DNA of 63,717 bases. Source: a virus. Its lineage: Duplodnaviria; Caudoviricetes. A model generated the notes under the pieces. It was not told the origin of the DNA, did not search any database, and saw nothing but the letters and a program-made list of their open reading frames with translations. Positions 1-20,383 of the stretch are shown here, piece by piece. Where the stretch lies: IMG/VR virus record IMGVR_UViG_3300030376_004081, positions 1 through 63,717 of that record, one strand, 5' to 3'. Numbering within the stretch: position 1 is the first letter of the stretch; the number at the start of each line of letters is the position of its first letter. A program made the position numbers and the translations under genes.

Positions 1-1
1 C

Positions 2-847
2 CAAGCCGATTTAGAATCAAGAGTATCTGCCGCAGCATTTTTAGGAACATTACAGGCTGGATATACTGATTTCCATTATCTTCGGGAAGTATGGCGTAAA
101 GCAACTGAAAAAGATGCTTTGTTGGGTGTTTCTATGACTGGTATTGCTTCTAATGTAGTTGAGCATTTAGACTTAGAAATGGCCGCATACGAAGTAAAGA
201 AAGAAAATGAAAAGGTCGCCAAACAAATTGGAATTAAACCTGCTTCAAGAACTACTTGTGTAAAACCTGCTGGAACCACTTCTCTTGTTTTAGGAACATC
301 AAGTGGTATTCATGCTTATCACGATGAATATTATATTCGTCGCCTTCGTGTTGGAAAGAATGAAGCGATTTACGGCTATCTTCTAAACAATCACCCTGAG
401 TTGGTTGAGGATGAGTTTTTCAATCCGCACGAACAGGCAGTTATTTCAGTTCCTCAAAAAGCACCAGATTCAGCAATTACCCGACATGAATCAGTATTTG
501 ATTTATTAGAACGAGTAAAGAACTTTAGTATTCGTTGGGTTCGTGCAGGACATAATGATGGATTAAATACTCACAATGTATCAGCAACTATTTCTATTAA
601 AGAAGATGAATGGGAACCTGTTGCTGATTGGATGTGGTTAAACCGCCACTATTACAACGGATTATCCGTATTACCTTATGATGGAGGCACTTATACTCAA
701 GCACCGTTTGAAACCTGTGATAAAGAAACCTACGATAAATTAACAGAATCATTAAAAGATGTTGATTTAACTATGGTTGAAGAATTACAAGATGATACAG
801 ACCTTTCAGGCGAAATAGCCTGTGCGGGTGGGGCTTGCGAAATTTAA
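2..847 (+). CDS. nrdJ: Class II (B12-dependent) ribonucleotide reductase, 5'-truncated by the window edge
   Basis: Frame is open from position 2 (QADLESRVSAAAFLGTLQAGYTDFHYLR...). Contains TTCVKPAGTTSLVLGTSSGIH and a C-terminal redox Cys pair (ACAGGACEI) typical of monomeric NrdJ. Confidence 0.93.
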   Translation, partial: QADLESRVSAAAFLGTLQAGYTDFHYLREVWRKATEKDALLGVSMTGIASNVVEHLDLEMAAYEVKKENEKVAKQIGIKPASRTTCVKPAGTTSLVLGTSSGIHAYHDEYYIRRLRVGKNEAIYGYLLNNHPELVEDEFFNPHEQAVISVPQKAPDSAITRHESVFDLLERVKNFSIRWVRAGHNDGLNTHNVSATISIKEDEWEPVADWMWLNRHYYNGLSVLPYDGGTYTQAPFETCDKETYDKLTESLKDVDLTMVEELQDDTDLSGEIACAGGACEI

Positions 848-856
848 GGTGATTAA

Positions 857-1219
857 ATGAAACTCTTCAAAAATTATGAAGAGTATTTAGAAACAATAAC
901 AATAATATGTAAAGACTTAAGTAATGAGTCTCTACAAAAAATAGGACTAGCAATAAATGTTTGTGATTCTTACATGGATGACAGCGAAAAAATATATAGG
1001 CTAAATACTACTGTAATGAAATGTCTTTGGGAAATAGAAGAAGCAATCCATATGGGATTCACTCAATACTTGAACAAAGAGTATAGTAAGACAAGATACA
1101 TTATTGAATATTATAAAGAAAACAATGAGAATCCTTGTCCTCTTTCTGAATTAATGGAAGAAATAAAAATAAAAATGAGGAATAACAATGAAAGAAAAGA
1201 ACCCCCAATATGTTCTTAA
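857..1219 (+). CDS. Hypothetical protein
   Basis: 120-aa ORF preceded by AGGTGA RBS; no recognisable motif. Confidence 0.7.
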   Translation: MKLFKNYEEYLETITIICKDLSNESLQKIGLAINVCDSYMDDSEKIYRLNTTVMKCLWEIEEAIHMGFTQYLNKEYSKTRYIIEYYKENNENPCPLSELMEEIKIKMRNNNERKEPPICS

Positions 1220-1349
1220 TAAAAGAAAGAACACAAAGATAGCCACCCGTTGTCGGGTGTGCGGTGGGCAATTATTCTTGCCTAATGAAATTAAGAATGA
1301 AATACACGATAAGTGTGATAATGATGACAAAAATGTTTATATGATGTGA
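1188..1349 (+). CDS. Zinc-finger microprotein (53 aa; not in ORF track)
   Basis: Manual translation MKEKNPQYVLNKRKNTKIATRCRVCGGQLFLPNEIKNEIHDKCDNDDKNVYMM; CxxC...HxxC; GAGG upstream; fills the gap to the next gene. Confidence 0.7.
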   Translation: MKEKNPQYVLNKRKNTKIATRCRVCGGQLFLPNEIKNEIHDKCDNDDKNVYMM

Positions 1350-1353
1350 TAAT

Positions 1354-2505
1354 ATGGAATTAAAAATTACTCAACCCAATGATAGTCAGCAACATTATAG
1401 TTGTAATATTCGCTGTGAAACCTTTAATTTTCCAACTCATAAGACTGTTTCTTATGAAAGGAGTGCTAAAGACCCTATTCAAGCAGGACTTGAAAGGTTT
1501 TGGAGAAACCTTATTTCTCCAAGAAAGAAAAGATATTCAAGAACACATGGATTTTCTGATATGTTTCATCATGTTGTATTTATTGAGGAATGCCCAGTTG
1601 TTCTTTCAAGAGAAGGTATTCGTTATCATCTAAATGGTAAGTCATACAGTCTATCAACCATTTGTTCTGCTTTGGCTAGAATTACATACAAAGCGTGTTT
1701 TGATAAAGAAGGTGCAGTATTACTATCAGCGTTATATTCTACTCTTAACCTACCCGAAAATGTAAAGTATTGTTTAGAGAATCGTGCGCCATATCATTTT
1801 GTTCATGATTTTGTCAAACAAGATGTTCGTTTGAATGTTGTGCAGATTGATGATAAGATGCTTGCTATGGAAATTAGTGATGGTGTTTGGGGTGAAATAA
1901 CACCTAAGCAATTAGACTCATATTGTAATTTTTATCTTCATGGAAAAAAGAGAGGCAGTTGGAAGTTTCTTTCCCCGAACAGACTATATACTAGACTGAT
2001 GAACAAAGAACCGAGCGCATCTGAACTGAAAGTGATGATTGCGTTTTTGATGCAAAACAGAATGCAAGACATTGTAGATGCAAGAGCGTTAGAACTGGTG
2101 GAAGATATGTTAAATCAACACAAAGGTCGTCTATCTGCTGAATATGATGATAATGGAACATTAGAGAAACTTTACATTCGTGGAAAAGATTATGATTGGA
2201 TGCTTTCTAATAACAAATATAAATCAGGTATTCAAATGGTTTCTACCTTTGTTTGGCAACCAGTTGAAACTCACACACATGATGAAGAAGGGGTAATAAA
2301 TGGAACTGTTTTATCTGAACCAGAATGGCGTGGGCCAATTTGTATTGACAATATGGCTGATGGTTCTCCATTAGGCGACCAATTCGCAACAAGAGCATTA
2401 GCATTACTGAATGATTTTCACACAATAAAAATAGTTAATACAATTAAGTCTTATTTAAAGACTGAACCCAATAAATATAGGAATGATGGAAATGATTTGC
2501 GATGA
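1354..2505 (+). CDS. Hypothetical protein (383 aa) with C-terminal GPICID motif
   Basis: Long ORF in operon; no confident family assignment. Confidence 0.8.
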   Translation: MELKITQPNDSQQHYSCNIRCETFNFPTHKTVSYERSAKDPIQAGLERFWRNLISPRKKRYSRTHGFSDMFHHVVFIEECPVVLSREGIRYHLNGKSYSLSTICSALARITYKACFDKEGAVLLSALYSTLNLPENVKYCLENRAPYHFVHDFVKQDVRLNVVQIDDKMLAMEISDGVWGEITPKQLDSYCNFYLHGKKRGSWKFLSPNRLYTRLMNKEPSASELKVMIAFLMQNRMQDIVDARALELVEDMLNQHKGRLSAEYDDNGTLEKLYIRGKDYDWMLSNNKYKSGIQMVSTFVWQPVETHTHDEEGVINGTVLSEPEWRGPICIDNMADGSPLGDQFATRALALLNDFHTIKIVNTIKSYLKTEPNKYRNDGNDLR

Positions 2506-3349
2506 ATGCGGTTGCACAGAAAATAACTTTGATGAAACTCTTGGAGAAAGAGTATGTGCCGATTGTGGCTTAGTCTTGGTTCAAGAACTATTTGAAGAAA
2601 CTGTTCATTCTTTAGATACAACAGGGAATCTAAGGCATTCAGCAGATAAAGGCAAACTAGGCTCAGTAATAACTGGGAAAGGTTCTTACAAATTCAATAA
2701 GTTCGGAAAGAATAGTGTTGTACCTCAACACATTCAAAAGGCTTTGATGCATTGTAATATGGTTTTAGCGCAAGTTGCGCCTCATCTCAATCTTAATGAA
2801 AGAGTTGAGAAATTATATATGGAATTGAACACCAAGAATATCTTTGGTAGGACTCAATTAGAAGCAAGGGCAACTGCATTAGTATTCTATGCTTTAAAGG
2901 AAAATGGAACTCCTCATCCTATGAAAGATGTTATGGCTGAATTTGAACCGAATGAAAAAACAGTCAAAAGATTGATTAGAAAAATTAATCAGGTTTATCG
3001 CAATAGCGCAAACTACACTCCCATAAATCCCCAATATCAACTGGAACAGACTCTAAGTAAGTTATCAGATGATTTGGTCTTTAGGAGACAATGTTTCAAA
3101 GTATTAGAATTTTTTGAAGCAAAGGCGGAAAAGAACACCTTCAATAAAGGAAGGTCATATTATGCAGCAATTATTTGGATTGCTGCTAAAATGAATGTTA
3201 ATACTGAAATAAAAGACCGAATACTTTCCGAGAAAACAGGGTTCTCTCGTTGGGTTATTTGGCGACAGACCAAAGAAATACTTGGAATGGTTGGTCTTGA
3301 AAATGCAAGCCAAGTAAAAGGAAAACAATTAAGTGAATTAGGTGAATGA
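2483..3349 (+). CDS. tfb: Transcription initiation factor IIB (TFB)-like protein
   Basis: N-terminal Zn ribbon CDECG...GERVCADCGLVL followed by two cyclin-like helical repeats (GRTQLEARATALVFYA; GRSYYAAIIWIAA). Confidence 0.88.
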   Translation: MMEMICDECGCTENNFDETLGERVCADCGLVLVQELFEETVHSLDTTGNLRHSADKGKLGSVITGKGSYKFNKFGKNSVVPQHIQKALMHCNMVLAQVAPHLNLNERVEKLYMELNTKNIFGRTQLEARATALVFYALKENGTPHPMKDVMAEFEPNEKTVKRLIRKINQVYRNSANYTPINPQYQLEQTLSKLSDDLVFRRQCFKVLEFFEAKAEKNTFNKGRSYYAAIIWIAAKMNVNTEIKDRILSEKTGFSRWVIWRQTKEILGMVGLENASQVKGKQLSELGE

Positions 3350-3674
3350 TATGTTTGAAAAAGAATGGAATAGAATAGCAAAGAAGATTTATACAAACGC
3401 AGTTAATCATGGATTCTGGAAAGAAGAAGTGAATGATGGTGAAAGAATGGCTTTGATTCATGCTGAAATAAGTGAAGCATTAGAAGCACTAAGAGAAGGT
3501 AATCCTTCATCAAATAAGATTATTGAATTTACTAATCTTGAAGAAGAATTAGCCGATGCAGTAATTCGTATCATGGATTATGCTTTTGGTAAGGATTTAG
3601 ATATAGCGGGTGCGATTCTCGCTAAGGTAGAATACAATAAAAGCCGTGAATATATGCATGGTAAATCGTTTTAA
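3342..3674 (+). CDS. MazG-like nucleotide pyrophosphohydrolase
   Basis: ALIHAEISEALEALR...EEELADAVIRIMD acidic helical motif. Confidence 0.85.
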   Translation: MNDMFEKEWNRIAKKIYTNAVNHGFWKEEVNDGERMALIHAEISEALEALREGNPSSNKIIEFTNLEEELADAVIRIMDYAFGKDLDIAGAILAKVEYNKSREYMHGKSF

Positions 3675-3686
3675 GGAGGAATAAAT

Positions 3687-3965
3687 ATGGAAGAAACAGA
3701 ATTTGATAAGTTTATCAACGAAATGCAAAGAAGAGGAACTATTGTAGCAAGTTTGGATGGGTGTATGTGTGCTGATTGTGTAGCAAGAAGAAAGAAACAT
3801 GGCGCAAAACCAATGGAAATTATTCCCAAAGAAACAGACGACCCAATTCAAAATGCAAATCGTCAAATGAAGATTGAGAAACTAAAACGAGGTATGAGTA
3901 GAAAAACTACTCAAGCCCAAAGAAAAACAAAACAAAGAAAGAATAAAAAGAAGAAGGAGGAATAA
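3687..3965 (+). CDS. Basic hypothetical protein with CxCxxC
   Basis: AGGAGG RBS; GCMCADC; Lys/Arg-rich C-terminus. Confidence 0.7.
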   Translation: MEETEFDKFINEMQRRGTIVASLDGCMCADCVARRKKHGAKPMEIIPKETDDPIQNANRQMKIEKLKRGMSRKTTQAQRKTKQRKNKKKKEE

Positions 3966-3967
3966 AT

Positions 3968-4264
3968 ATGAATCATGTAAAATTAACATACTATACAAAA
4001 ACAAAAAACGATGAATACGAATACCATACCATGTCAGGAGAATTACTAGTAGGTAATGCTATGTTTTCCGATATGGTTGGGATTAAAAATAGCCATGAAG
4101 GAGTTGTTCTAATTCCTTCAGCGACTTTAGTTAAACTTGAAGCAAAGGAACTGGATGAAATGTTCCTAGTTAGATTTAATCTATTGAAAGATGTATTAAC
4201 TCATCAAGATGAAGAAATGACAAATAAGATTAACGGTAATGGTGGAAATCACCTATTTAGTTGA
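3968..4264 (+). CDS. Hypothetical protein (98 aa)
   Basis: AGGAGG RBS; directly upstream of the ThiF gene; ends NGNGGNHLFS. Confidence 0.72.
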   Translation: MNHVKLTYYTKTKNDEYEYHTMSGELLVGNAMFSDMVGIKNSHEGVVLIPSATLVKLEAKELDEMFLVRFNLLKDVLTHQDEEMTNKINGNGGNHLFS

Positions 4265-4276
4265 GGAGGAATAAAT

Positions 4277-4834
4277 ATGAGAAAAATATTAATTATTGGA
4301 GCAGGTGGAATTGGAAGTTTTCTAATTCCTATTTTGGATAAAGTCGGTCTTTACCACATTCATGTGGCTGACCCTGATAGCGTAGAAACAAAAAATTTAC
4401 CCTATCAAAACTTTAAGAAAGCCCATGTTGGGCAGAATAAGGCTAGTGTTATGATGGATTCATATAAATCAGTCATTACATTCAGTAAATACCCTATTTT
4501 AACTCAAAAACAAATGTCAGGATTTGACCTTGTGATTTGTTGCGTAGATAACTTGGGCGTAAGGCGAACCTTATACAACACAAGCCTTAAATGGCTTGAC
4601 CTACGAGCGCAAGGTAGAAACGCTGCATTTGTGTCGCACAAAGCAGACCCTAAGATGTATGATATGCTTTTAGCAGGTGAAGAAGGTTCATTTAGTTGTC
4701 AAGGTAATTCATGGGATGGTACAAATAGTAATGTTCATTTCATGCAAGTCGCAATTGCAGGATTAGGCGCACAATGGATTCAAAGATACTTCAATGAAGA
4801 AGAAGTGAGAGATTATATGGTGGTGAATGTATGA
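4277..4834 (+). CDS. ThiF/MoeB/E1-family adenylyltransferase
   Basis: ILIIGAGGIGS Rossmann motif, DPDSVETKNLPYQ, GQNKA, DLVICCVDN; single C-terminal Cys (SFSCQ); no Zn-binding CxxC pair. Confidence 0.92.
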   Translation: MRKILIIGAGGIGSFLIPILDKVGLYHIHVADPDSVETKNLPYQNFKKAHVGQNKASVMMDSYKSVITFSKYPILTQKQMSGFDLVICCVDNLGVRRTLYNTSLKWLDLRAQGRNAAFVSHKADPKMYDMLLAGEEGSFSCQGNSWDGTNSNVHFMQVAIAGLGAQWIQRYFNEEEVRDYMVVNV

Positions 4835-6066
4835 GTAAAAATAATAAATGGAATGATGAACAATTAGCCTTTTTAGTTGTAGCAAGAATGAAAGGCGATA
4901 CATGGGATAGTATTGCATCTCAAATGATGCATCGGTTTGGTATAAATCGTAGCGGAACTAACATTTCTTTGAAATATAGAAAAACTATTGGAATAGATTT
5001 ATCTGCTGCTTTTCCAGCAGACCAAGAAAAGTTCATACAGGATTGCTGGACAAATAATTTCAATACACAGCAAATTATTATGGGATTCAAAGAACAGTTT
5101 GGAAGAACTATAACGGAAAATCACATTGATATGGTGATAACACAAATACAACATGAAGATAGTGTTGAAAAAGAATTATCTAAACAAACAACAAAAATAA
5201 AAAAGGAGATGAAAATGATGAGAAAATCAGTAAAATGGACAGAAGAAGAAGATAACATGATTATGTCATGTAATAGCAGAAAGGAAGCATTTGCGCTAGA
5301 CCTGAATGGCCGAACAAAAGGGGCTATTCGTAATCGCTGGCAAATGCTTAAATCAAAACCAAAGAAAACCAAACTAAAGCGTGGCCGCTATTCAGTTGAA
5401 GAAGTGGCTTTGCTCGCAAACTGCGCTTCTCTTGAAGAAGCACTAGAGGTATTCAAAGGAAAAAGAAGCGAATTTTCTATTACAGGAAAGTATCGCACTA
5501 TTGGGAATAGGACTTCACTATACCAGAAACCAGTTAAGCCTGTTGATAACATTAAAAAGCCAGCAAAGCGTGGCCGAATGACAAAGGCTGAATTGGAAAT
5601 GATTCGCAATTGTGAAACAGTTGAAGAAGCATTGGCTTTGAATTTGCGAAAACCCGAAACAATTATTCGGCAATTCACTACGCTAAAAACTGCTCCAACA
5701 AAAACCAAAAAGACTTCTAAGAAGAAAACGACTCATGGAAACAAGGGTAAGAAATATACCCCTCGTTGGACGAAAGAAGAAGATTTTGAACTAGTTTGTA
5801 ATTTTTATGAACTATCCATTGATGAAGCAAGAAATCGCTTTAATCGTTCATACGGAGCAATCGCAAGTCGCTTAGAAATGCTTGTTGATAGCACAAAACC
5901 CGACCATATTTCTATGCTTATGGAGGCTTCTTTATTGATTAAGGCTCGCAAGCAAGTGTTGAGCGAACCGCCTAAGAAATCCCGTAGAACGCTACGGAAA
6001 GAGCGAAAGAACGCTAAGAAAGAGGCTAAGTTGAAGGCCAAGTTGATGAAGTTAAGAGGTGAGTAA
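4831..6066 (+). CDS. Multi-repeat Myb/SANT-like DNA-binding protein
   Basis: Repeats such as KWTEEEDNMIM...NGRTKGAIRNRWQML and RWTKEEDFELV...NRSYGAIASRL; about six copies. Confidence 0.8.
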   Translation: MSKNNKWNDEQLAFLVVARMKGDTWDSIASQMMHRFGINRSGTNISLKYRKTIGIDLSAAFPADQEKFIQDCWTNNFNTQQIIMGFKEQFGRTITENHIDMVITQIQHEDSVEKELSKQTTKIKKEMKMMRKSVKWTEEEDNMIMSCNSRKEAFALDLNGRTKGAIRNRWQMLKSKPKKTKLKRGRYSVEEVALLANCASLEEALEVFKGKRSEFSITGKYRTIGNRTSLYQKPVKPVDNIKKPAKRGRMTKAELEMIRNCETVEEALALNLRKPETIIRQFTTLKTAPTKTKKTSKKKTTHGNKGKKYTPRWTKEEDFELVCNFYELSIDEARNRFNRSYGAIASRLEMLVDSTKPDHISMLMEASLLIKARKQVLSEPPKKSRRTLRKERKNAKKEAKLKAKLMKLRGE

Positions 6067-6670
6067 GATGGGTAAAAATGCACAAGCAGAAGAATGTATA
6101 AAATGTGGCGAATTGATTTATTATAACGGGAATAATCCTTGTTGTATTGATGAAGATTCTGAACTAACAGAAGATAGGAATAGTGTTGAACAGATTATTA
6201 CAAATCATTTTAATCATTTGCTTGAACAACAACTATCTTCTTGTGCTGGCCCAAAAGAAGAATTACTTGATGTGGCTATGCATGATTTAGAGTTCCATAA
6301 AACTATTTGGGAGTGTTCAACTGAAATACTTCCAGGATTAGAAGTACAAGTAGTTATTGATGGTAAAAACAATTGTTTTGTTTCAACTGGAAGTTCAGGA
6401 TATGTAGACTTTTTTGAACCACCAGTCGGTATGTCTCTTCCTATTCGTTGTTGGATTCATACTCATCCATTTGGTGCTGCTTATTTTAGTGGGACAGATA
6501 TTCGCACAGTAAGTATTTGGGAAGTAATGATGGAAACTGCATATGTTCTTGGCGGAGAAGGTCATTATGGATTTTGGTCGCAAAGAGAACCACAGCAACT
6601 TGAAATTTATGTAAATAATGTTGAAAAGGAAATTCAAACTTGGAAGAAAAAAGGAGATGAAGAGGAATGA
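6059..6670 (+). CDS. JAB/MPN+ (JAMM) metalloprotease
   Basis: Upstream Glu (GLEVQVV) and WIHTHPFGAAYFSGTD = H-x-H-x7-S-x-x-D. Confidence 0.88.
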   Translation: MSKMGKNAQAEECIKCGELIYYNGNNPCCIDEDSELTEDRNSVEQIITNHFNHLLEQQLSSCAGPKEELLDVAMHDLEFHKTIWECSTEILPGLEVQVVIDGKNNCFVSTGSSGYVDFFEPPVGMSLPIRCWIHTHPFGAAYFSGTDIRTVSIWEVMMETAYVLGGEGHYGFWSQREPQQLEIYVNNVEKEIQTWKKKGDEEE

Positions 6671-6912
6671 AAATGAATAAAGAAATACCAGAAAGATTGA
6701 CAGTAAAGGAACGAAGAGAGCGTCATATGGAAATGCATCCTAATGATAAGAATAAGCGTCGTGAAGGTAAAGGAATTACATGGTCTAAGAAAACACAACG
6801 AGATAAAGATTTGAAGTTGTTTTACAAGACCCATGTTTATACCTTTGTTGATGAAAAAGATTTGTCAAAGAAGCGTTGGATTCGTATTGCAGGGTATGGT
6901 GAAGAAGAATGA
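6667..6912 (+). CDS. Basic hypothetical protein
   Basis: ATGA-coupled to both neighbours. Confidence 0.7.
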   Translation: MKMNKEIPERLTVKERRERHMEMHPNDKNKRREGKGITWSKKTQRDKDLKLFYKTHVYTFVDEKDLSKKRWIRIAGYGEEE

Positions 6913-7235
6913 AGGAAGTTCTTATTTGGCTTAAAGAAAACCATCCTGATGTTTATGAGGAATACATGGCTTATACTAAACCCCAAAGAGATTTAGAAGT
7001 CAAAAGACTCAAAGAAAAGTTTGATGCGGTTCAAAAGTGGTTAGATGAATTAAAAGACCACCCTCGCTGGACAACTCAAAATGATTTCCAAAAAGCAATT
7101 CAAATGTCTTTAGATATGTATAATATGACTGATGATGAAGAAGAAAGGGCTAATATATGGAATGCTGTTCGGTCTTTAGGAAGTAGTCATCCTAGTTTTC
7201 CGAGAAGAAGAGGAATAAGGAGTGAAGAAGAATGA
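6909..7235 (+). CDS. Hypothetical protein
   Basis: ATGA-coupled ORF, 108 aa. Confidence 0.7.
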   Translation: MKEVLIWLKENHPDVYEEYMAYTKPQRDLEVKRLKEKFDAVQKWLDELKDHPRWTTQNDFQKAIQMSLDMYNMTDDEEERANIWNAVRSLGSSHPSFPRRRGIRSEEE

Positions 7236-7450
7236 AAGCAATAGGAGATTATGCAATAATAGAAGTAGAAAATTCTGTTTCTGCTACGGGTATTCAGATT
7301 AAAAGTGATGGACAAGGCTTAGTGCTTTCATGTCCTAAATATCCTGAGATAGAAGGAAAGTTTGTTTTGTTTGATGATAGACACCGTTCACCAACACATG
7401 ATGACCTAATATTTGTTAAGACAGAATACTTACTGGGAGTGATAGAATGA
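7232..7450 (+). CDS. groES: GroES-like co-chaperonin (short, 72 aa)
   Basis: MKAIGDYAIIE...SATGIQI (mobile-loop-like) and C-terminal LIFVKTEYLLGVIE; directly upstream of groEL. Confidence 0.75.
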   Translation: MKAIGDYAIIEVENSVSATGIQIKSDGQGLVLSCPKYPEIEGKFVLFDDRHRSPTHDDLIFVKTEYLLGVIE

Positions 7451-8943
7451 TTATTAATGGAAAAGAAGTAAAAGAAAAACTACTACAAGGAATTAATTTG
7501 GTTGCTAATACAGTTAAACCAACTTTAGGGCCACAAGCAAAAACAGTTATTCTTCAGGGTAATCCTCCAATCATTATTAATGACGGTGTAACTATTACAA
7601 AGTATGTTTCCCATGATGACCCTTATGTTCAAATGGGTGTTCAATTGGTTCAAAACTTAGCAAGTAAAGCACAAGATTCTTCAGGAGATGGAACAACAAC
7701 TGCTTGTATTTTAGCACAGGCTTTCTGTAATAATCTTTTTAATAATCCACCAAAAGAATCTGTTCATCGTTTTAATGACCGTATGGAAAGACTAAAGAGT
7801 TTTACAATAGGTTGGTTAGATAGTATTTCTCTTGAAATTGATGATAGCAACATTAAGAATGTTGCTACTATTGCATCAAACAATGATGAAAACTTAGGTG
7901 AATTAATTCAATCGGCTTTAGATAAAGTAGGAAGAGATGGTGTCGTCACAGTTGAAGAATCAAATAATTATCAAACTCAATTAATTCTACGAGAAGGTAT
8001 GGAGATTCAAGAAGGATATTTAAGCCATCTTATGTGCAATACAGAAAATGGAAAGGTTGAATTAAACAACCCAGTTATTTTTATGTCTAATATGGGATTG
8101 AGGCAATTTAAAGATATTATGCCTCTTCTTGAATATTCAGCAAGCCAAAGCAGACCGCTTCTAATTATGTGTAAAGGAATGGATGGTTCAGCACTTAACA
8201 ACCTATTGATGAATGTTATGAATAAAACAGTTGAATGTGCTGTAATCCTTGCCCCTAATTTTGGTGATGCTCAAATTGATGAATTGGGCGATATTCAATC
8301 ATTGGTTGGAGGAAAGGTCTTTATTGATGAAACAAGAGATGATTCAAAACTATTTACAGAAAGCGACTTAGGTACTTGTGCAAAGGTTGTTATTACAAAA
8401 GAAACTACAACTTTTGTTGGCGGTGAGGGAGATACAAAAGCAAGAATTACTTCTCTAAAGGAACAGGCTGATGAATTAAAAGGACATGAATTGGCTAGAC
8501 TTAAATCAAGAGTTGCTCGTCTAAAAGGGGGTGTTGCTACAATTAAGGTTGGTGCTTCATCTTCTATTGAAATGCGAGAAAAGAAAGAAAGACTTGATGA
8601 TGCCCTTCATGCAACAAAGGCCGCCTTAGAAGAAGGTATTGTTGTAGGTGGAGGAAATGCTTATTGGAGATTATCACTTGAAAACCCAACTCTACCTAGA
8701 TGGTTTAGAGATGCTCTATTAGAACCAATGAGAACTCTTATGCGTAATGGAGGAGTAGATGATACCGTTCCTCAATATGAACACATTGATGATGGATTTA
8801 ATGCTCTTACTGGTCATTTTGGTAATCTTGCTAAAGCAGGAGTTTATGACCCAGTAAAGGTAGCAAAGAATAGTTTCTTGGCGGCATTATCAATTGCACA
8901 GTTATTCTATTCAACAGAAGTTGCAGTATTAGTGGAGGAATAA
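7447..8943 (+). CDS. groEL: Group I chaperonin GroEL
   Basis: TLGP, INDGVTI, GDGTTTA, APNFGD, EKKERLDDALHATKAALEEGIVVGGG, YDPVKV. Confidence 0.96.
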   Translation: MIINGKEVKEKLLQGINLVANTVKPTLGPQAKTVILQGNPPIIINDGVTITKYVSHDDPYVQMGVQLVQNLASKAQDSSGDGTTTACILAQAFCNNLFNNPPKESVHRFNDRMERLKSFTIGWLDSISLEIDDSNIKNVATIASNNDENLGELIQSALDKVGRDGVVTVEESNNYQTQLILREGMEIQEGYLSHLMCNTENGKVELNNPVIFMSNMGLRQFKDIMPLLEYSASQSRPLLIMCKGMDGSALNNLLMNVMNKTVECAVILAPNFGDAQIDELGDIQSLVGGKVFIDETRDDSKLFTESDLGTCAKVVITKETTTFVGGEGDTKARITSLKEQADELKGHELARLKSRVARLKGGVATIKVGASSSIEMREKKERLDDALHATKAALEEGIVVGGGNAYWRLSLENPTLPRWFRDALLEPMRTLMRNGGVDDTVPQYEHIDDGFNALTGHFGNLAKAGVYDPVKVAKNSFLAALSIAQLFYSTEVAVLVEE

Positions 8944-10365: not shown

Positions 10366-10522
10366 TTGGATATACTTAGCAAATGCTATGTGGGAATATT
10401 CAGAAAAACACGAAGGAAGAGTTAGTCAATTACTCAAACAATTGGTAAAAGAAGTAAATAAAAATAAGGAGATGATTATAGATGACATGGGAAAACATGA
10501 GCAGAATGATGCAAGCGACTGA
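10352..10522 (+). CDS. Small hypothetical protein (56 aa; not in ORF track)
   Basis: MKKSDWIYLANAMWEYSEKHEGRVSQLLKQLVKEV...; AGGTGG RBS; fills the gap before the ligase. Confidence 0.6.
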   Translation: MKKSDWIYLANAMWEYSEKHEGRVSQLLKQLVKEVNKNKEMIIDDMGKHEQNDASD

Positions 10523-12023
10523 CCAAATGGTTCAAACGCAGCAAGTAAATAGAATAGCAAAAGATTTAGAAGGATTTACTACATTAAAGAGTAATCCGTC
10601 TCTTGTATTGCAAATCTTAGATAAGGATAAGTTAGAGGCAAATAATCTTGGTCTAGCAAAAGCAAAGAAATGGATGGCTAAAATCTTTGATGTTTTTGAT
10701 GATGAAATAGATGGATTGATGTATGCTCACGATGATTTAGGTGAAGCAATCTATCATCTTGACCCTTCTGCTGAAAAGCAACGAAACTTTTCAGTCCAAT
10801 ATGTTCATCGTCTTTTGAATATGAACTGTGGAAAGATTGATTCTAATGAGTTTTCAATGATTGAAGAATCAATTTTGGCTATGTCTGCAAACGCACGACG
10901 CTGGTTTATTCGCTATATGCTCAGAACTCCGAGAAACGGAATCAATGAAGGAACAGTAGCGAAGATTATTGCTAAGTATTACAATAAGAAGCAAGCAGAT
11001 GTAAAGAAACATTTGAACTTTAATTCTGTTGAAGTAGTTTGTCAGTATTATGAAGCAGGTAATAACCCTCCTTGTAATTTAACTTACGGAAAGTTTGTAA
11101 AACCAATGCTTGCTAAGGAAGTTCCGATGAATAAGTGGCCGACTAATTTTGTTGTTGATTACAAATACGATGGAAACAGGTATCAGATTCATATTGATGG
11201 CGACAAAACTATGATTTTTAATCGTAAGGGTAAAATTGTGACTCAGCAATTCCCTGATGTTGTTGAATTGGTTCAAGCCTATGATGTTAAAAACGCTATT
11301 CTTGATGGCGAAATCTATCCTATCTTGGAAAATGGTTCACCTGCACCTCATAAAACAATGGGAACGAGAGTTCATTCAAAGAATGTTCAAGAGGCTATGG
11401 AAAGAGTCAAAGTAGAATGGGTAATTTTTGACTGTCTTATGCTTAACAACGAAACAGTTATGGATTTATCATATACTGATAGGTTAGTGAGAATGAAAGA
11501 CCTCCCTAATCAAGCACACCGAATCACCGAAGGCGATATTATGGCCTTTTACCATGAAGCAATCAATGAAGGGTTTGAAGGAATCATCGTTAAAGATGCA
11601 AGCCAACCTTATCAATCAGGAAAACGCTCCGTTTTCTGGGCTAAATACAAACCTCCGCAGATAAACCTTGATGTTGTTATCCTTTCCGCTAAATACGGGG
11701 AAGGAAAACGCTCCAATGTTTTCGGCACTTACGAATTAGGCGTGAGGGCTAATAATGGTTATCACAGCGTAGGATGGTGCGGAACAGGCTTTTCGGATAG
11801 CGATTTAGTTCATTTAACGAACACACTTCGTCGTAATGTAGAATCATTTGAGAACGGGAGATTCTTTGTTTCACCTGTTGTTGTTTTAGAAGTTAAGGCT
11901 GATTTAGTTAGTCGTGATGCAAATAATAACTTAGGACTTAGATTCCCTCGTTGTATTCGTATTCGTGATGATAAGTTTGTTATTGACATTAATACACTTG
12001 AAGATGTGGAGAGATTAGAATGA
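10482..12023 (+). CDS. lig: ATP-dependent DNA ligase (archaeal type)
   Basis: KPMLA, YKYDGNR, ILDGEI, FDCL, EGIIVK, WAKYK, LRFPR motifs; N-terminal DNA-binding domain. Confidence 0.96.
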   Translation: MTWENMSRMMQATDQMVQTQQVNRIAKDLEGFTTLKSNPSLVLQILDKDKLEANNLGLAKAKKWMAKIFDVFDDEIDGLMYAHDDLGEAIYHLDPSAEKQRNFSVQYVHRLLNMNCGKIDSNEFSMIEESILAMSANARRWFIRYMLRTPRNGINEGTVAKIIAKYYNKKQADVKKHLNFNSVEVVCQYYEAGNNPPCNLTYGKFVKPMLAKEVPMNKWPTNFVVDYKYDGNRYQIHIDGDKTMIFNRKGKIVTQQFPDVVELVQAYDVKNAILDGEIYPILENGSPAPHKTMGTRVHSKNVQEAMERVKVEWVIFDCLMLNNETVMDLSYTDRLVRMKDLPNQAHRITEGDIMAFYHEAINEGFEGIIVKDASQPYQSGKRSVFWAKYKPPQINLDVVILSAKYGEGKRSNVFGTYELGVRANNGYHSVGWCGTGFSDSDLVHLTNTLRRNVESFENGRFFVSPVVVLEVKADLVSRDANNNLGLRFPRCIRIRDDKFVIDINTLEDVERLE

Positions 12024-14345: not shown

Positions 14346-15231
14346 ACCAAAGAAATTAAATGAAGTAATAGGACAAGAACACTTTACTTCCGATGCAAGA
14401 GGTTGGATTGAAGAAAAAAATATGCCTAATATCTTATTATACGGAAATCCTGGAAATGGTAAAACAGGAGCAGGATTAGTTATAGGAAGAGAAATCTTAG
14501 GTGAAACATTCAAAGATAACTATGTTGAAGTAAATGCGTCAGATGATAGAAGATTAGAAAATGTGCGAACAACAATTAAGAATATCGCACAAAGCGGAAC
14601 AATAGGTGATGCTCCTTTTAGAATAGTATTACTTGATGAAATGGATGGTATGACAACTGATGCTCAAAATGCACTAAAGCGTATTATGGAACGATATGCT
14701 AATAATATTCGTTTTATTATTACCTGCAACGATAGAAATAAAATTATTTTTGCACTACAAAGTAGGTGTGCAAATTATCATTTTAAGCCTCTCTCTAATG
14801 AAGCAGTTATGGAAGTATTAACTTCAATTCTCAAGGCTGAAGAAATAACGAGATTCTCCCAAGATGAATTGCACTCCTTTATATACGCTATGAATGGTGA
14901 TATGCGGAGGGCGATTACGGAACTACAAGCCGCTAAAGCGAGCAATTCCACCCTCAAGAAGCAAATTGATGCAGGATTAAATGAATATAAAAAATTGCTA
15001 ATGAAAATAATAAATAAAGACAACTTCGCATTAAGCAACATACACGATTTCTTACACAACGGATTTACAATCCGTGAAATCTGCATTGGCCTACATGATG
15101 CAGTTATTGAGTCTGATTTAGAAAGCAACTTAAAATTTAAAATTCTTAGAACAATAGGAGAAAGCGAATGGCGTTCAACCACTATGACTCCTAAAGTATT
15201 GGCCTCTTGGTTAATAAGTCAATTATCATAG
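14323..15231 (+). CDS. rfcS: Replication factor C small subunit
   Basis: WTEKYRP, GNPGNGKT, EVNASDDR, LLDEMD, AQNAL, ALQSRC, GDMRRAI. Confidence 0.96.
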   Translation: MLWTEKYRPKKLNEVIGQEHFTSDARGWIEEKNMPNILLYGNPGNGKTGAGLVIGREILGETFKDNYVEVNASDDRRLENVRTTIKNIAQSGTIGDAPFRIVLLDEMDGMTTDAQNALKRIMERYANNIRFIITCNDRNKIIFALQSRCANYHFKPLSNEAVMEVLTSILKAEEITRFSQDELHSFIYAMNGDMRRAITELQAAKASNSTLKKQIDAGLNEYKKLLMKIINKDNFALSNIHDFLHNGFTIREICIGLHDAVIESDLESNLKFKILRTIGESEWRSTTMTPKVLASWLISQLS

Positions 15232-15236
15232 ATTTG

Positions 15237-15270
15237 AACAAAACAAAAAAAAACAAAACAAAACAAAAAA
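15237..15270 (+). repeat. A-rich (AAAAC)n intergenic tract in the leader of the SSB/RPA-like gene
   Basis: aacaaaacaaaaaaaaacaaaacaaaacaaaaaa: 34 nt containing only A and C. Confidence 0.85.
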
Positions 15271-15285
15271 TATGGAAGTGAAAAT

Positions 15286-16506
15286 ATGGATGAAAACATG
15301 AAAGCAGAAATTGAAAAGAGCGCACAATACATTGGATTGAGCGTTGAAGAAGCGACGAATAAATTTGAAGAGATTTGTTCTGAAAACAACATTGAAACAA
15401 CAAACCCCATTGGTCGTGGCCTTTGGAGAAACTTTGTTGCTAATGTGCGAAGAACACAAGAAAGCGGGGATAAGAAGGAAAATAGCAACGATTCTTTTTA
15501 CAAAGCGGCATTTGGTTTCTTTGTTTCTTTAGATGCTCCGAGAGATATGATGGCTTGGAACAGAATGAAAGCAAAAGAAGAGTATATGCGTGATGCGGAT
15601 AATGCTCTTGAACAAGGAATTGTTGCAGTAGCAAATCAAAATGCTCTTGGTAAGTGGGTTGTTTCCCGTTATCACAACAATGAATACGAAGAAAAAACTG
15701 TTTCAACTTTACCTTCGGGTGCAGAAGAAACAGAAGATGGTCGTTTTTATATTCCTTTGGATAGCACCGCAACTTACATGAATGGTGGTAAAAACAACAA
15801 TTACGGTAAGCCTCTTCCCGCAGAACAAATGCGAAGAAGTGGTATTTTCTTTGGTTCTATTGGAACAGGAGAAATGAAACCTTATTACTTTTCTTACAAG
15901 AATCAAGGTGGAGTAGATTTTGCACCAAATACTTTTGAATGGGTGCATTTCCTTTGCGTAGCAAATGATAATGGAACAGACCTTTATGGTGCAAAGCAAT
16001 TAACTTTGGACAGTCTTTCCCTTAATTCTGACATGAATCCCGATAATGAACTTTATCGTGATATGTCGTCTTTTGACTTTGAGGATTGTTTGCGTGAAAA
16101 CTTTGAATCACATCTTGTTCCTTTGATTGATATGGATAAGGCACATATTAGTCGCCAAGCACTTCCTTCAAAAGAGCGTTTCGTGATTACTGATGGAACG
16201 GTGTGCAATATGAATATGACTCCAACAAAGAACGGAAATAGAATCATTAACCTAACTGATGTTAATGCAGTAATGGATTATGATTCTAATGAATCGGGTA
16301 TTACTACCTGCTGGATTCCTGAGCATTTGTCTCTTGATTTCGGTATCGGTTCTTCCGTTATTGTTATTGGGCGAACAAGCCAAAGAACAACTGATGAAGG
16401 CGTTGAACCAACAACTATCAATGTTGCTGGTATTTACTGCACAATTCGTCATGGTTCTGCGGTTGAGGTTTCAGTTCCAGTTGAAGAGGACTTTGACTGG
16501 TTTTGA
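15286..16506 (+). CDS. RPA/SSB-like OB-fold single-stranded DNA-binding protein
   Basis: C-terminal OB-like strand pattern (ITDGTVCNMN...RIINLTD...TTCW...GIGSSVIVIGRT); acidic-aromatic tail EEDFDWF; position in replication cluster. Confidence 0.65.
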   Translation: MDENMKAEIEKSAQYIGLSVEEATNKFEEICSENNIETTNPIGRGLWRNFVANVRRTQESGDKKENSNDSFYKAAFGFFVSLDAPRDMMAWNRMKAKEEYMRDADNALEQGIVAVANQNALGKWVVSRYHNNEYEEKTVSTLPSGAEETEDGRFYIPLDSTATYMNGGKNNNYGKPLPAEQMRRSGIFFGSIGTGEMKPYYFSYKNQGGVDFAPNTFEWVHFLCVANDNGTDLYGAKQLTLDSLSLNSDMNPDNELYRDMSSFDFEDCLRENFESHLVPLIDMDKAHISRQALPSKERFVITDGTVCNMNMTPTKNGNRIINLTDVNAVMDYDSNESGITTCWIPEHLSLDFGIGSSVIVIGRTSQRTTDEGVEPTTINVAGIYCTIRHGSAVEVSVPVEEDFDWF

Positions 16507-16513
16507 TTAAAAC

Positions 16514-16583
16514 CACCTTTTGTGTAGCCGTTGGCGTTAATGACGGTCATATAGGTGCGAAGCCTATACTTTTAAAAAAGGTG
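16514..16583 (+). promoter_or_regulatory. Predicted structured intergenic RNA that could occlude the next RBS
   Basis: CACCTTTT (16514-21) is complementary to AAAAGGTG (16576-83, the RBS); inner hairpins GCCGTTG/TGACGGT and TATAGGT-GCGAA-GCCTATA. Confidence 0.5.
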
Positions 16584-16590
16584 AAAAAAT

Positions 16591-16887
16591 ATGGAAAAGA
16601 TTACAATAAATGATTACTTCCCTGCTTATATTGCAGGGAATTTTGCTGTTAAGCAAGGGGCTTGGATTGTCCATTTAGGAGAAGTTGAGTTTATTACTTA
16701 CAGAATAAATGAAAAGAACGAAAATCAGTATTTAGTTATGCTTCACATGAAAGATAAAGAAGCAAAGATTATGGTTGATAGTTTAAGTGCTTTGAAAGAA
16801 TTACTTTCTACTTGGGCTAAATCTAAAGGTAAAGAACTAACACTAGAAGAAGAAGATTTGAAAGGAGAAGTGAGAACATGGGATTAA
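16591..16887 (+). CDS. Hypothetical protein
   Basis: AGGTGA RBS; 98 aa. Confidence 0.72.
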   Translation: MEKITINDYFPAYIAGNFAVKQGAWIVHLGEVEFITYRINEKNENQYLVMLHMKDKEAKIMVDSLSALKELLSTWAKSKGKELTLEEEDLKGEVRTWD

Positions 16888-17699
16888 CTAGCAATAAAAA
16901 TACAAAAGCAGTAGATGAAGGAATGGCGCAAAATGCAAGGGTTCTTGCATTTAAAGATAAATTAGCAAAGCAAACAGAAGGACGACTTGCTCGTAGCAAC
17001 CGTCTTATTTGTGGTGTTTGGGGAGAACCAAAGACAGTTAAAAGCGGTTTGGCTCTTGACTTCCCAAATAAACAAATTTATGTTTTAGATTGGGATGATG
17101 GTTGCGAACCAACTTGGAGACAAAACCATGAAATGACTGATAGGATTACACTTTGGAATCCTGAAGTGCGAAACAAAAATGGTGAATTAGATATTCAAAA
17201 GTCCGAAGCAAATTCAGAAGATTTTGTTTTGTTTGTTAAATCAAAGATTGAAGAAGGCGAAGATTGTCTTTTTGTTTTTGATGGTGTAGATAAATGGCTT
17301 GATTGTTGCACATTAAATGTAACTGGCTCTTCAAAAATTGGAAAGCCACAAAAGATGAAATTTGAATGGGGTAAGAGAAATGCACCATTTTATTCTCTTT
17401 TGATGATGTGTAAGAATCTTAATTGCGACCAAATTTATATTACGCATTCAAAGGCTGATTATGGCGCAACTGGCGAAGTAATTGGTTCTAAACCAAACTG
17501 GCATAATTGGGGTGATTACCTGTATCAAATTATTACAACAAGAAGAACACGCAAAAAGAACGATGTTGTCTATAAGGCTGAATTACTCAGTAGTAAGACT
17601 AACACCGAATTAGTAGGTAAATCTTGGGAAACATTAACCGTTGGTAGTGGTAAAGTTTCTTGGGAAGGAATATCCGAATTGCGTGAGGGATTGATTTGA
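16878..17699 (+). CDS. RecA-superfamily ATPase (Sak4/RadB-like recombination protein)
   Basis: Walker A variant WGEPKTVKS, VLDWDDG, Walker B FVFDGVD, IYITH; lies between SSB and PCNA. Confidence 0.72.
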   Translation: MGLTSNKNTKAVDEGMAQNARVLAFKDKLAKQTEGRLARSNRLICGVWGEPKTVKSGLALDFPNKQIYVLDWDDGCEPTWRQNHEMTDRITLWNPEVRNKNGELDIQKSEANSEDFVLFVKSKIEEGEDCLFVFDGVDKWLDCCTLNVTGSSKIGKPQKMKFEWGKRNAPFYSLLMMCKNLNCDQIYITHSKADYGATGEVIGSKPNWHNWGDYLYQIITTRRTRKKNDVVYKAELLSSKTNTELVGKSWETLTVGSGKVSWEGISELREGLI

Positions 17700-18463: not shown

Positions 18464-18469
18464 ATAATA

Positions 18470-20104: not shown

Positions 20105-20274
20105 AAACAAAATACATTACAGTAAAAGTGTCCTATGACACAGAAGAAACATGGAATATTACTATGCAAGAAGTAAAAGAAATATTTCAAATGATGAATA
20201 ACCTCAAACGAAATGCAATCATTGTTGATATTGAACAAGGTGTGAATGAAAATGATGATGGACAAGACGAATGA
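20101..20274 (+). CDS. Small protein inserted between the polB halves (57 aa; not in ORF track)
   Basis: MKTKYITVKVSYDTEETWNITMQEVKEIFQMMNNLKRNAIIVDIEQGVNENDDGQDE; ATGA overlap with the polB-N stop. Confidence 0.65.
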   Translation: MKTKYITVKVSYDTEETWNITMQEVKEIFQMMNNLKRNAIIVDIEQGVNENDDGQDE

Positions 20275-20383
20275 GTTATTAGAAGAATTGCTGGCTATGA
20301 TAGCAAAATCAAATAAGATATTGATGATGGTAAATATCGTGAACATAGCAACCATCATAACAATTATAACGGTGATATTATGA
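20252..20383 (+). CDS. Small membrane-anchored protein between the polB halves (43 aa; not in ORF track)
   Basis: MMMDKTNELLEELLAMIAKSNKILMMVNIVNIATIITIITVIL; hydrophobic C-terminus; ATGA-coupled to the next ORF. Confidence 0.6.
   Translation: MMMDKTNELLEELLAMIAKSNKILMMVNIVNIATIITIITVIL

Follow-up and report, generated by a model that had tools for sequence, protein, structure and literature searches.

The 63,717-base viral record IMGVR_UViG_3300030376_004081, the whole of which was analysed and is called the window here, carries two, possibly three, parts of a ubiquitin-like protein (Ubl) system that would be encoded by the virus itself and common to magrovirus-type archaeal viruses, with the tagging of proteins as its output; we give this reading as a whole a probability of about 0.6. 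The parts are a minimal E1-like protein of the ThiF family, a JAMM/JAB metallopeptidase, and, as the possible third, a conserved protein with a single invariant Cys (Table I), and the modifier itself is encoded in related viruses, upstream of the point at which this record breaks off. That the ThiF, JAB, and Ubl genes form one Ubl-E1-JAB system can be held with considerable confidence; that the system tags proteins, rather than carrying sulfur, is close to an even question. If the reading is correct, archaeal and bacterial viruses would have a new route by which to rewire their hosts, and such a system, carried by a virus and having the smallest E1 yet seen without any E2, would offer a simple model of Ubl activation and transfer.

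The window fits the magroviruses, tailed viruses that have been assigned to Marine Group II archaea and, in the surface ocean, are among the most abundant viruses (PMC5434244), because of its gene content and because related contigs are ∼92–97 kb in length. Pfam searches recognize, among other genes, those for a split family-B DNA polymerase, for an RFC-like clamp loader, for ERCC4 and PD-(D/E)XK nucleases, and for a Cpn60-type chaperonin, as well as two ATP-dependent ligase domains and a structural module (HK97-type capsid, protease, portal, and tail genes). CheckV estimates a completeness of 69%. In a blastn comparison, the window aligns to positions 16,843–78,291 of its closest complete relative, G001 (94,476 bases), with window positions 1–3695 matching 16843–20546, and this placement indicates that the record lacks ∼17 kb at its left end and ∼15 kb at its right.

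Table I. Coordinates of the genes under discussion, with the truncated gene that marks the left end of the window
Feature	Position	Strand	Remarks
Class II (B12-type) ribonucleotide reductase (RNR), 3' part, cut at contig end	2–847	+	Landmark; RNR of G001 at 15815–17689 has Pfam RNR-II insertion and barrel domains
Conserved protein, 383 residues, candidate fourth component	1354–2505	+	One invariant Cys; between Ubl and E1 in relatives
Minimal E1-like (ThiF-family) protein, 185 residues	4277–4834	+	Pfam PF00899, motifs, alignments
Myb/SANT-like repeat protein, 411 residues, six degenerate repeats	4831–6066	+	PF00249, phrog_323; between E1 and JAB
JAMM/JAB (MPN+) metallopeptidase, 200 residues	6068–6670	+	ATG 6068; 203 residues if GTG 6059; core ∼77–194

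The E1-like protein, the JAB peptidase, and a Ubl encoded by relatives

The E1-like protein matches Pfam ThiF with an E-value of 2.9e-17 (63.1 bits against a cut-off of 28.1), and GGAGG is located 9 nt 5' of its ATG. Its motifs comprise a Rossmann GxGGxG, D32/D34, K55, D91-N92-x3-R96, and C141 within SCQ. The glycines G8, G10, G11, and G13, together with C141, are invariant both in 18 magrovirus sequences and in a 19-sequence alignment of a wider clade; K55, D91, and R96 are invariant across the clade, and N92 also in the magrovirus alignment. The Mg/ATP roles of K55, D91, and R96 are presumed, being assigned from MoeB/ThiF structures. A first-pass annotation of this DNA had noted one candidate catalytic Cys and no Zn site, and both points are borne out: the protein has three Cys residues (C88, C89, and C141), C141 is invariant, and there is no CxxC pair. 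The N-terminal helix of MoeB/ThiF-type enzymes is also missing, because the Pfam match begins at profile position 22, which corresponds to residue 3.

A search of 1.84 billion representative sequences with the profile of this protein gave 6339 matches at E ≤ 0.001, including 309 at ≤ 1e-10, and the best 150 of the 6339 are mostly 180–205 residues in length and aligned end to end. Among these 150, SCQ is present in 102 of the 109 members of at least 170 residues, and a rough regular expression for the Arg position of the NLxRQ motif finds Tyr in 60, His in 12, and Arg in 1 of the 109, with 17 unmatched. Judged by its sequence, the window protein thus belongs to a distinct clade of minimal E1-like proteins of ∼190 residues. 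It reaches none of the curated NCBIfam E1 families, for which the scores are 49.6 bits with ThiF PRK08644, the best sulfur-transfer model (model cut-off, 159), 43.6 with PRTRC ThiF TIGR03736 (144.75), 35.9 with Cap2_3 (320), 35.8 with MoeB (266), 28.3 with UbaA NF047750 (450), and 19.7 with TcdA (304). A grouping with TcdA or with sulfur-transfer enzymes, which the first-pass annotation had named as an outcome that would speak against a Ubl system, is therefore not what these curated models indicate, the scores with all of them being far under cut-off.

The peptidase was also correctly recognized at first pass. Although the match to Pfam Prok-JAB (E 0.002, 18.4 bits) is under the cut-off of 25, the identification is sound because the JAMM motif E...HxH-x7-S-xx-D (E95, H134, H136, S144, and D147) is invariant in 20 homologues, because the profile matches AMSH-LP at the motif (E 0.0046; the top match, a WD40 coatomer protein, is an artefact of composition), and because the chains retrieved by Foldseek with the AlphaFold2 model (predicted local distance difference test (pLDDT) score, 84.3) are nearly all JAB/MPN proteins, among them AF2198, Rpn11, CSN5, AMSH, Sst2, PfJAMM1, BubCD, and RadC; the best is AF2198 (E 2.7e-3), and the probability is up to 0.99. 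The N-terminal Zn ribbon is variable. The ThiF, Myb, and JAB open reading frames (ORFs) are tightly packed at the positions first assigned to them, but the earlier description of three overlapping genes applies only to ThiF and Myb, which share 4 nt (ATGA). JAB more likely starts at ATG 6068, one base past the Myb stop and preceded by AGAGGTGA, because this Met (M4 of the longer form) is invariant in 20 homologues and the identical database protein has 200 residues. A JAB of identical sequence is encoded on a contig of 94.4 kb.

No beta-grasp Ubl had been found in the window at first pass, and none was found here; the relatives do encode one, upstream of the contig break. A hidden Markov model (HMM) was built from ten small phage ORFs and run over the six-frame translations of the fetched loci, and it matches a 66–70-residue ORF in the magrovirus loci with E-values of 1e-7 to 2e-11. 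The magrovirus consensus is MIKLRIMNETGHTE..L....VIEQIDTHPTHWVFIDGEMVARE.I..INWD.V.SVDLTPAIVGG. The Ubl gene lies 2.9–5.7 kb upstream of ThiF in 31 of the 39 loci with at least 5.9 kb of upstream flank; five of the other eight were searched in the whole records (L009, L019, and L052 were not among them), and the gene is present just beyond 6 kb in all five, which brings the count to 36 of 39. In G001, the Ubl gene (15,149–15,352) is followed by a 127-residue ORF and then by the RNR gene, whose start is ∼0.5 kb downstream. Since the first ORF of the window is the 3' end of the RNR gene, comparison with G001 puts the Ubl gene expected in this virus outside the window, ∼1.5 kb before position 1.

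Among 49 distinct magrovirus Ubls, 12 stop at Gly-Gly (GG), and the others continue past it, by one residue in 3 and by two in 34 (SY, NL, CY, and others); a tail of one or two residues after GG would be a precursor form and would therefore need a peptidase. Of the phage Ubls, 11 of 14 stop at GG, two are longer by one residue, and the last bears a fused extension of 155 residues. An AlphaFold2 model of the magrovirus protein (pLDDT 86.5, from a 27-row alignment) has the order beta-beta-alpha-beta-beta-alpha-beta with a floppy tail. Its top 50 Foldseek matches are all ubiquitin, NEDD8, ISG15, SUMO, or UBL domains (E 2e-3 to 9e-3), and VIA-align, run against 48,161 chains, places MoaD first (Z 5.5, root mean square deviation 3.1, 63 residues aligned) and the Ubl of a bacterial E1-E2-Ubl complex second (Z 5.3), followed by Fubi, ISG15, CysO, SAMP1 (Z 4.3), Urm1, ThiS, TtuB, and BubA. 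The assignment to beta-grasp Ubls is considered safe because both lists of folds are uniform in make-up and because the terminal GG is invariant. The family has no Pfam family above cut-off, and Pfam ThiS (PF02597) gives no match in any of the 5 complete relatives.

Other ORFs of the window were considered as the modifier and set aside. ORF 3968–4264, which immediately precedes ThiF and ends GNGGNHLFS, has homologues in only 6 of the 57 related loci (L008, L009, L023, L024, L042, and L052), that of L042 is without GG, and the ORFs at this position are unrelated between loci. ORFs with GG near the C terminus in other forms (GGWE and the like) are unconserved, and the product of ORF 6667–6912, which is basic and conserved, has an HPNDKN..FYKTH motif but ends without GG. 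Separately, many ORFs between positions 3687 and 8943 that are followed almost at once by the start of another gene, a few bases away at most, end in E-E(-E), less often in G-G or R-R-E; such tails seem to be in-frame readings of the GGAGG-type ribosome-binding sites of translationally coupled genes and yield misleading GG C termini.

Gene order, fusions, and companion proteins

The gene arrangement recurs in 57 related viral loci, which is far beyond chance. These loci form a first set; a second set is more distant, and some contigs are in both. In the 57 loci, the ThiF protein is conserved at 68–93% identity, above its neighbours (Myb, 31–67%; JAB, 46–75%; chaperonin, 55–87%), and the Ubl/E1/JAB set is one of the best-conserved non-structural blocks of the magroviruses. 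The order ThiF-(Myb)-JAB-(small basic ORF)-(72-residue ORF)-GroEL is kept throughout; three loci (L032, L037, and L048) have no Myb gene, so that ThiF abuts JAB and the order is ThiF-JAB-small ORF-GroEL. The co-occurrence of ThiF and JAB in relatives, on which the first-pass proposal depended, is nearly complete: JAB accompanies ThiF in each of the 54 first-set loci whose downstream flank is at least 3.5 kb. In the second set it does so in 62 of 63 loci, and the remaining one (L081) has a JAB of the phage type. The small basic ORF right after JAB in most loci, 6667–6912 (+) in the window, belongs to a family with 45 matches (38 distinct), a motif ..R..H...HPNDKN...G..W...R.K.L..FYK.H.Y, and no counterpart among known families.

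Gene fusions within the E1 clade join the same three components. The 407-residue protein P0378 is an E1-JAB fusion, in which residues 274–369 match the magrovirus JAB HMM at 5e-14, and P0296 and P0351 have an N-terminal Ubl fused to E1 (Ubl HMM, 2.3e-17 and 1.3e-11). P0385, with ..LPLLLGG before the Rossmann fold, resembles a Ubl-E1 fusion by eye and is not matched by the Ubl HMM. An N-terminal fusion of a Ub-like domain to certain ThiF proteins was described by Iyer et al. 2006 (PMC1779556).

A search of viral contigs with an alignment of distant clade members recovered 302 relatives, and 80 of these were retained. They include a group of phages with a sigma-70 gene (L065–L076), in which a class II RNR gene is followed at some distance by the series [∼700-residue protein]-Ubl-JAB-ThiF. 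The Ubl has 71–86 residues and ends ..LTNALVGG at the stop, JAB has 144–198 residues and passes the Pfam cut-off (4.5e-13), and ThiF has ∼200 residues; downstream of ThiF there is a small Cys-rich ORF in about half of the loci and a sigma factor in most. A profile search of genome contigs also found the magrovirus-type set in three contigs of metagenome-assembled genomes labelled Maricaulis and Altibacter, which are probably mis-binned viral DNA.

The 383-residue protein is the candidate fourth component. Its gene is situated between Ubl and E1 in every related locus with enough flank, and a homologue co-occurs in L150–L152. In a family of 42 sequences, there is a single invariant Cys, C330, within W-x-GPICIDN..GDQ..RA.A..ND. 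The protein has no match in Pfam or the ESM Atlas, and its neighbour, ORF 857–1219, has no usable ESM Atlas match. When compared by hhalign with the ∼700-residue phage protein, which is encoded immediately upstream of the Ubl in the phages, the family aligns collinearly over 313 columns (E 0.0015), which include the Cys motif (..yICIVDK..VG.D.LVNR..A..ND in the phage protein); an HMM of the phage protein gives no match at E ≤ 10 in the magrovirus six-frame translations. The product could tentatively be seen, from these sequence comparisons, as a transfer enzyme in place of E2/E3 or as a main target of the modifier.

The Myb-like protein matches Pfam PF00249 (E 2.2e-11, 44.1 bits against 24.4) and phrog_323, a "transcriptional regulator" (1.3e-10). 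The six repeats described at first pass can be aligned by eye or with MAFFT, but when searched singly only repeat 1 (7.3e-4) and repeat 3 (9.7e-6) match Pfam Myb, and repeats 2, 4, 5, and 6 do not. Homologues of 103–418 residues are detectable by BLAST in 48 loci, and the number of repeats ranges from one to six. In L026, L041, L043, and L045, the same slot holds proteins of 251–269 residues that start with W-T-x-E-E/Q and are SANT-like by eye; Pfam is silent for the two of them that were checked. The Myb-like protein is not a core part of the system, because it is unfused to JAB, varies from one to six repeats, and is sometimes missing. The parallel that had been drawn with eukaryotic MYSM1, in which a Myb/SANT domain is joined to an MPN+ domain, also fails, since Myb and JAB are separate proteins here and three loci have no Myb gene. 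A looser tie between DNA-binding domains and the E1 clade may exist: such a module separates E1 from JAB in nearly all magrovirus loci, P0299 has an N-terminal helix-turn-helix (HTH) domain fused to E1 (Pfam HTH_23, 1.6e-6), which is 37% identical over 41 residues to repeat 6 of the window protein (pairwise E 0.011), and L069 and L072 have weakly HTH-like ORFs between Ubl and JAB (E 6e-4 and 0.08, both below cut-off). The HTH-E1 fusion lends this tie weak support, and the module may act as an operon regulator or as an adaptor to DNA-bound targets.

Proposed function and its alternatives

The mechanism that we propose, in which every chemical step and all targets are inferred from the gene content, conservation, co-occurrence, fusions, folds, and motifs described above, would begin with JAB trimming the tail of the Ubl and exposing Gly-Gly. 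The E1-like enzyme would adenylate the Ubl C terminus with ATP, probably then loading it onto Cys141, and the tag would be passed to lysines of viral or host proteins, either directly or via the 383-residue Cys protein, in a SAMPylation-like process that involves no E2. JAB could also strip the tag from its targets, and the Myb-like protein would be a variable DNA-binding companion, either regulator or adaptor, outside the core. The first-pass suggestion that the virus may tag and untag proteins is thus upheld as regards the existence of a Ubl-type system, through the co-occurrence of ThiF and JAB, the fusions, and the cognate Ubl of relatives, but no E2 was found, and the tagging of proteins is the part of the suggestion on which the balance is about even. 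Within a single system, tagging takes about half of our expectation and sulfur carriage nearly a third, the rest being anti-host or other functions.

A fuller version of this reading, which is possible and offered tentatively, is a self-contained tagging machine of four parts: a masked Ubl precursor, an E1 of minimal size without Zn, a JAMM peptidase, and, to replace E2/E3, a Cys partner of unseen fold. Guided by the Myb/HTH proteins, it would attach the tag to host or viral proteins that serve in replication, transcription, or chromatin. Its carriers would be abundant ocean archaeal viruses and, in diverged form, many bacteriophages, with E1 and JAB relatives in cultured crAss-like phages.

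It should be recognized that a number of observations weigh against protein tagging by such a system. Zn-binding CxxC pairs are absent from the E1-like protein, which has only 3 Cys; the Arg of the NLxRQ motif, present as NLNRQ in the same columns of E1s in the PDB, is replaced by an invariant Y43 (nl-t-Y-Q); and HMMER aligns known E1s only to residues ∼3–105, leaving the C-terminal half unaligned to solved E1s. Because the Arg, the N-terminal helix, and the Zn site are absent and only the N-terminal half is aligned, it is an assumption that the protein adenylates and that C141 has its presumed role. The Ubl HMM has no match in the six frames of the window, and a Ubl gene in this virus, which should exist, is extrapolated from the relatives. 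Pfam detects neither E2 nor E3, whether in the window or in the remaining part of a complete relative. The fold scores are modest (for the 68-residue Ubl domain, Foldseek E ≥ 2e-3 and Z ≤ 5.5; for JAB, Foldseek E 2.7e-3), the magrovirus and phage JAB profiles align at the motif only, with an hhalign probability of 21%, and the hhalign probability of 17% makes the connection between the 383-residue protein and the ∼700-residue phage protein a weak link. Finally, Ubl, E1, and JAB without E2 are also the make-up of sulfur-carrier pathways.

Such a sulfur-carrier pathway is the alternative that survives best, although we consider it unlikely. JAB would trim the Ubl, E1 would adenylate it, and the Ubl C terminus, turned into a thiocarboxylate, would donate sulfur to a nucleotide, tRNA, cofactor, or small molecule produced in the course of infection. 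The CysO/Mec+/MoeZ and QbsE/QbsD/QbsC pathways have carriers with residues after GG that are removed by JAB, and the viral trio is likewise without E2 and has a 2-residue tail after GG in 34 of 49 Ubls; Ubl-E1 and HTH-E1 fusions, however, would be atypical of sulfur pathways. Fold comparisons are divided, the best VIA-align match being MoaD, with CysO, TtuB, and ThiS also listed, whereas Foldseek puts ubiquitin-type modifiers first. The top-scoring NCBIfam models are of the ThiF and MoeB types, but the best sulfur-transfer model reaches only 49.6 of the 159 bits of its cut-off. With regard to gene neighbourhood, class II RNR and a MazG-like pyrophosphatase are neighbours of the magrovirus genes, the phage group and crAss001 also have an RNR close to the trio, and Iyer et al. 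2006 list ThiS/MoaD-like, JAB, and E1 neighbourhoods with sulfur-assimilation genes (PMC1779556); on the other hand, no rhodanese, cysteine desulfurase, PP-loop thiolase, thiamine, molybdenum cofactor, or sulfur-assimilation gene was found among the 62 ORFs of the window or the 42 ORFs of the part of G001 absent from it, many of which have no family. The latter result extends the first-pass remark that no thiamine or molybdopterin genes are nearby.

Counter-defence or host take-over, in which the viral E1 and/or JAB would strip or misdirect host Ubl conjugates (SAMP-type or antiviral) and the viral Ubl would be a decoy or competitor, is improbable. JAB enzymes remove Ubls, and the JAB fold and motif are intact here, but this JAB gives no PADLOC match. 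The N-terminal half of the E1-like protein is matched by PADLOC Cap2 (E1-E2) models (best, 8.3e-10; among the matches listed, 25 of 32, the best stretch ends by residue 101), and bacterial Ubl systems act in antiviral defence (PMC10557695). A self-contained system nevertheless fits better, because the viruses encode their own cognate Ubl in precursor form and because archaeal and bacterial viruses alike have the three genes grouped together.

The idea that the E1-like enzyme adenylates something other than a Ubl, such as an RNA base (TcdA-like) or a peptide (like MccB or the ThiF-like enzymes of RiPPs, peptides made by ribosomes and modified after translation), and that its JAB/Ubl neighbourhood is functionally meaningless, is consistent with the truncation of the protein and its missing Arg, with the PDB profile matches to MccB (4.7e-7) and TcdA (1.6e-4), and with the distance of 2.9–6 kb to the Ubl gene in magroviruses, but it can be given very little weight in view of the Ubl-E1 and E1-JAB fusions within the same clade, the tight Ubl-JAB-E1 operon of the phage relatives, the near-perfect co-occurrence, and a TcdA score of 19.7 bits against 304.

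Known systems, cultured relatives, and other features of the window

The tagging system proposed here can be compared with several that are known. The SAMP system of Haloferax volcanii consists of SAMP1–3, the E1 UbaA, and the JAMM desampylase HvJAMM1 (PMC4443979, PMC4895103). The viral set resembles it in its archaeal setting and in combining a small GG-ended beta-grasp modifier (here in relatives only) with a JAMM/MPN+ peptidase and one E1-like enzyme, unaccompanied by E2 or E3. It differs in being virus-encoded, in its 185-residue E1 without the Zn site and N-terminal helix and with Tyr for Arg, which scores 28.3 with the UbaA model where 450 is the cut-off, in that most of the viral Ubls are precursors with one or two residues after GG and have no Pfam model, and in the possible 383-residue Cys partner. 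In Caldiarchaeum subterraneum, CsRpn11 processes the CsUb precursor (PMC6043591). The likeness to the virus would be the use of a JAMM enzyme both for maturing a Ub-type precursor and for deconjugation, and the Caldiarchaeum Rpn11 homologue is among the Foldseek matches of the viral JAB. The Caldiarchaeum operon has E2 and E3-like genes, whereas no E2- or E3-like gene was detected in the virus.

The CysO/Mec+/MoeZ and QbsE/QbsD/QbsC trios, and the ThiS/MoaD-like, JAB, and E1-like neighbourhoods of Iyer et al. 2006 (PMC1779556), share with the viruses a Ubl, a JAB, and an E1 without E2, and residues after GG; in contrast to these sulfur trios, the viral E1 has no rhodanese domain, no sulfur-assimilation or cofactor genes were found nearby, and the genes lie in a replication/transcription block. 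The bacterial defence systems CBASS (with Cap2/Cap3), Bil, and Bub (PMC10557695, PMC11601596, PMC11601603) also combine an E1-like adenylation domain with a JAB and, in Bil and Bub, a Ubl, and BubA is among the fold matches of the viral Ubl, but the window lacks a CD-NTase and any E2, be it a domain or a separate gene, the E1 has a third of the length of Cap2, and the setting is viral rather than a host defence island. In contrast to the PRTRC cassette, the score with TIGR03736 is only 43.6 of 144.75 bits, and no ParB family was found in the Pfam scans of the window. The tail proteins TAPI (a Ubl) and TAPK (JAB plus NlpC) of phages lambda and T1 (PMC1779556) provide a precedent for a phage-encoded Ubl with a terminal Gly and a JAB, although they have no E1 and belong to a tail gene block, whereas an E1 is present here and the genes are among those for replication and transcription.

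Prokaryotic Ubl-JAB-E1 neighbourhoods have been known since 2006 (PMC1779556). In the RaFAH paper, a MoeB/ThiF-family gene is counted with the auxiliary genes that are most prevalent in archaeal viruses and is linked, in a single sentence, to ubiquitination (PMC8276007), and E1-like genes of Asgard viruses have been described in a preprint (10.1101/2021.07.29.454249). The main texts of PMC5434244, PMC10160649, and PMC11706807 contain no mention of ThiF, JAB, ubiquitin, or Myb, although their supplementary annotation tables may list them, and a literature search found no paper joining "magroviruses" with "ubiquitin." What is new here is a virus-borne, minimal E1 that lacks the Zn site and the Arg, a Ubl family with a masked GG that is unseen by Pfam, the lack of an E2, and a possible Cys partner.

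Diverged pairs of E1 and JAB are present in cultured crAss-like phages of Bacteroides, and the question can therefore be taken to the bench although magroviruses and their hosts are uncultured. A tblastn search with the window E1 found 9 records in the phage collection at 27–29% identity. In Bacteroides phage crAss001, the match is Gp76, annotated as "thiamine biosynthesis protein, ThiF" (ThiF HMM, 7e-21), and directly upstream is Gp77, a "metalloprotease domain containing protein" (both within L153 3256–5654). Gp77 contains ..IHSHNNMATFFSGTD.., by eye a JAMM-like HSH..SGTD motif, and the JAB HMMs give no match to it at E ≤ 1. The Ubl HMM likewise has no match in the crAss001 locus. Gp76/Gp77 could serve as a cultured model for the Ubl-E1-JAB system, and a literature search found no paper joining "crAss-like" with "ThiF." As a separate observation, the ∼165-residue N-terminal extension of Gp76 contains ..IIIQTAIVGG.., which resembles the end of the magrovirus Ubl.

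A class II RNR gene is within a few kilobases of the Ubl/E1/JAB genes in three virus groups, the magroviruses, the sigma-factor phages, and crAss001, in which the B12-dependent RNR Gp69 (L153:9419–10420) is 4 kb from Gp76/Gp77; this may be a mere replication-module neighbourhood. One RNR copy of the sigma-factor phages (L066:25–2667) contains a LAGLIDADG-type insert.

Two further genes lie between the 383-residue protein and E1 in the window. The 288-residue protein 2483–3349 (+) has an N-terminal TFIIB-type zinc ribbon (Pfam 2.2e-4, below cut-off) and matches phrog_20431; on this sequence evidence it is probably a virus-encoded TFB-like transcription factor, and in every relative its gene is situated between those of the Ubl and E1. 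The next gene, 3342–3674 (+), encodes a MazG-like nucleotide pyrophosphatase (phrog_3301, 5.1e-27), which is 70–95% identical among the relatives where it is present, a conservation like that of E1, and which is downstream of JAB in some lineages. Contigs of 85–95% likeness from RNA-Seq library X20 cover 29 of 30 bins of positions 3900–6900 and those from X19, an RNA library by guess, cover 10 of 30, which is not evidence of transcription since DNA carry-over is possible.

The 72-residue ORF 7232–7450 (+) is directly upstream of, and overlaps, the GroEL-type chaperonin gene 7447–8943 and is conserved in most related loci. We take the spacing of its hydrophobic and Gly residues to recall GroES, but no GroES match was obtained in Pfam, in NCBIfam, or in single-sequence or profile searches of PDB sequences. 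A statement in Philosof et al. 2017 (PMC5434244) is that no GroES is expected in magroviruses.

Elsewhere in the window, the family-B DNA polymerase is divided between two ORFs ∼480 bases apart, 18470–20104 (+), with the exonuclease domain and positions 37–194 of the polymerase profile, and 20585–21478 (+), with positions 222–368. An ATP-dependent DNA ligase at 10482–12023 (+) is a normal 513-residue enzyme of the replication block, and the second ligase domain is inside a 1000-residue protein, 53678–56680 (−), beside the capsid protease gene of the structural block. The prohead protease/scaffold-like protein, 52436–53641 (−), has a conserved GG near its C terminus, which reads ..HKMVGGV in the window and ..HKMVGGNL in G001.

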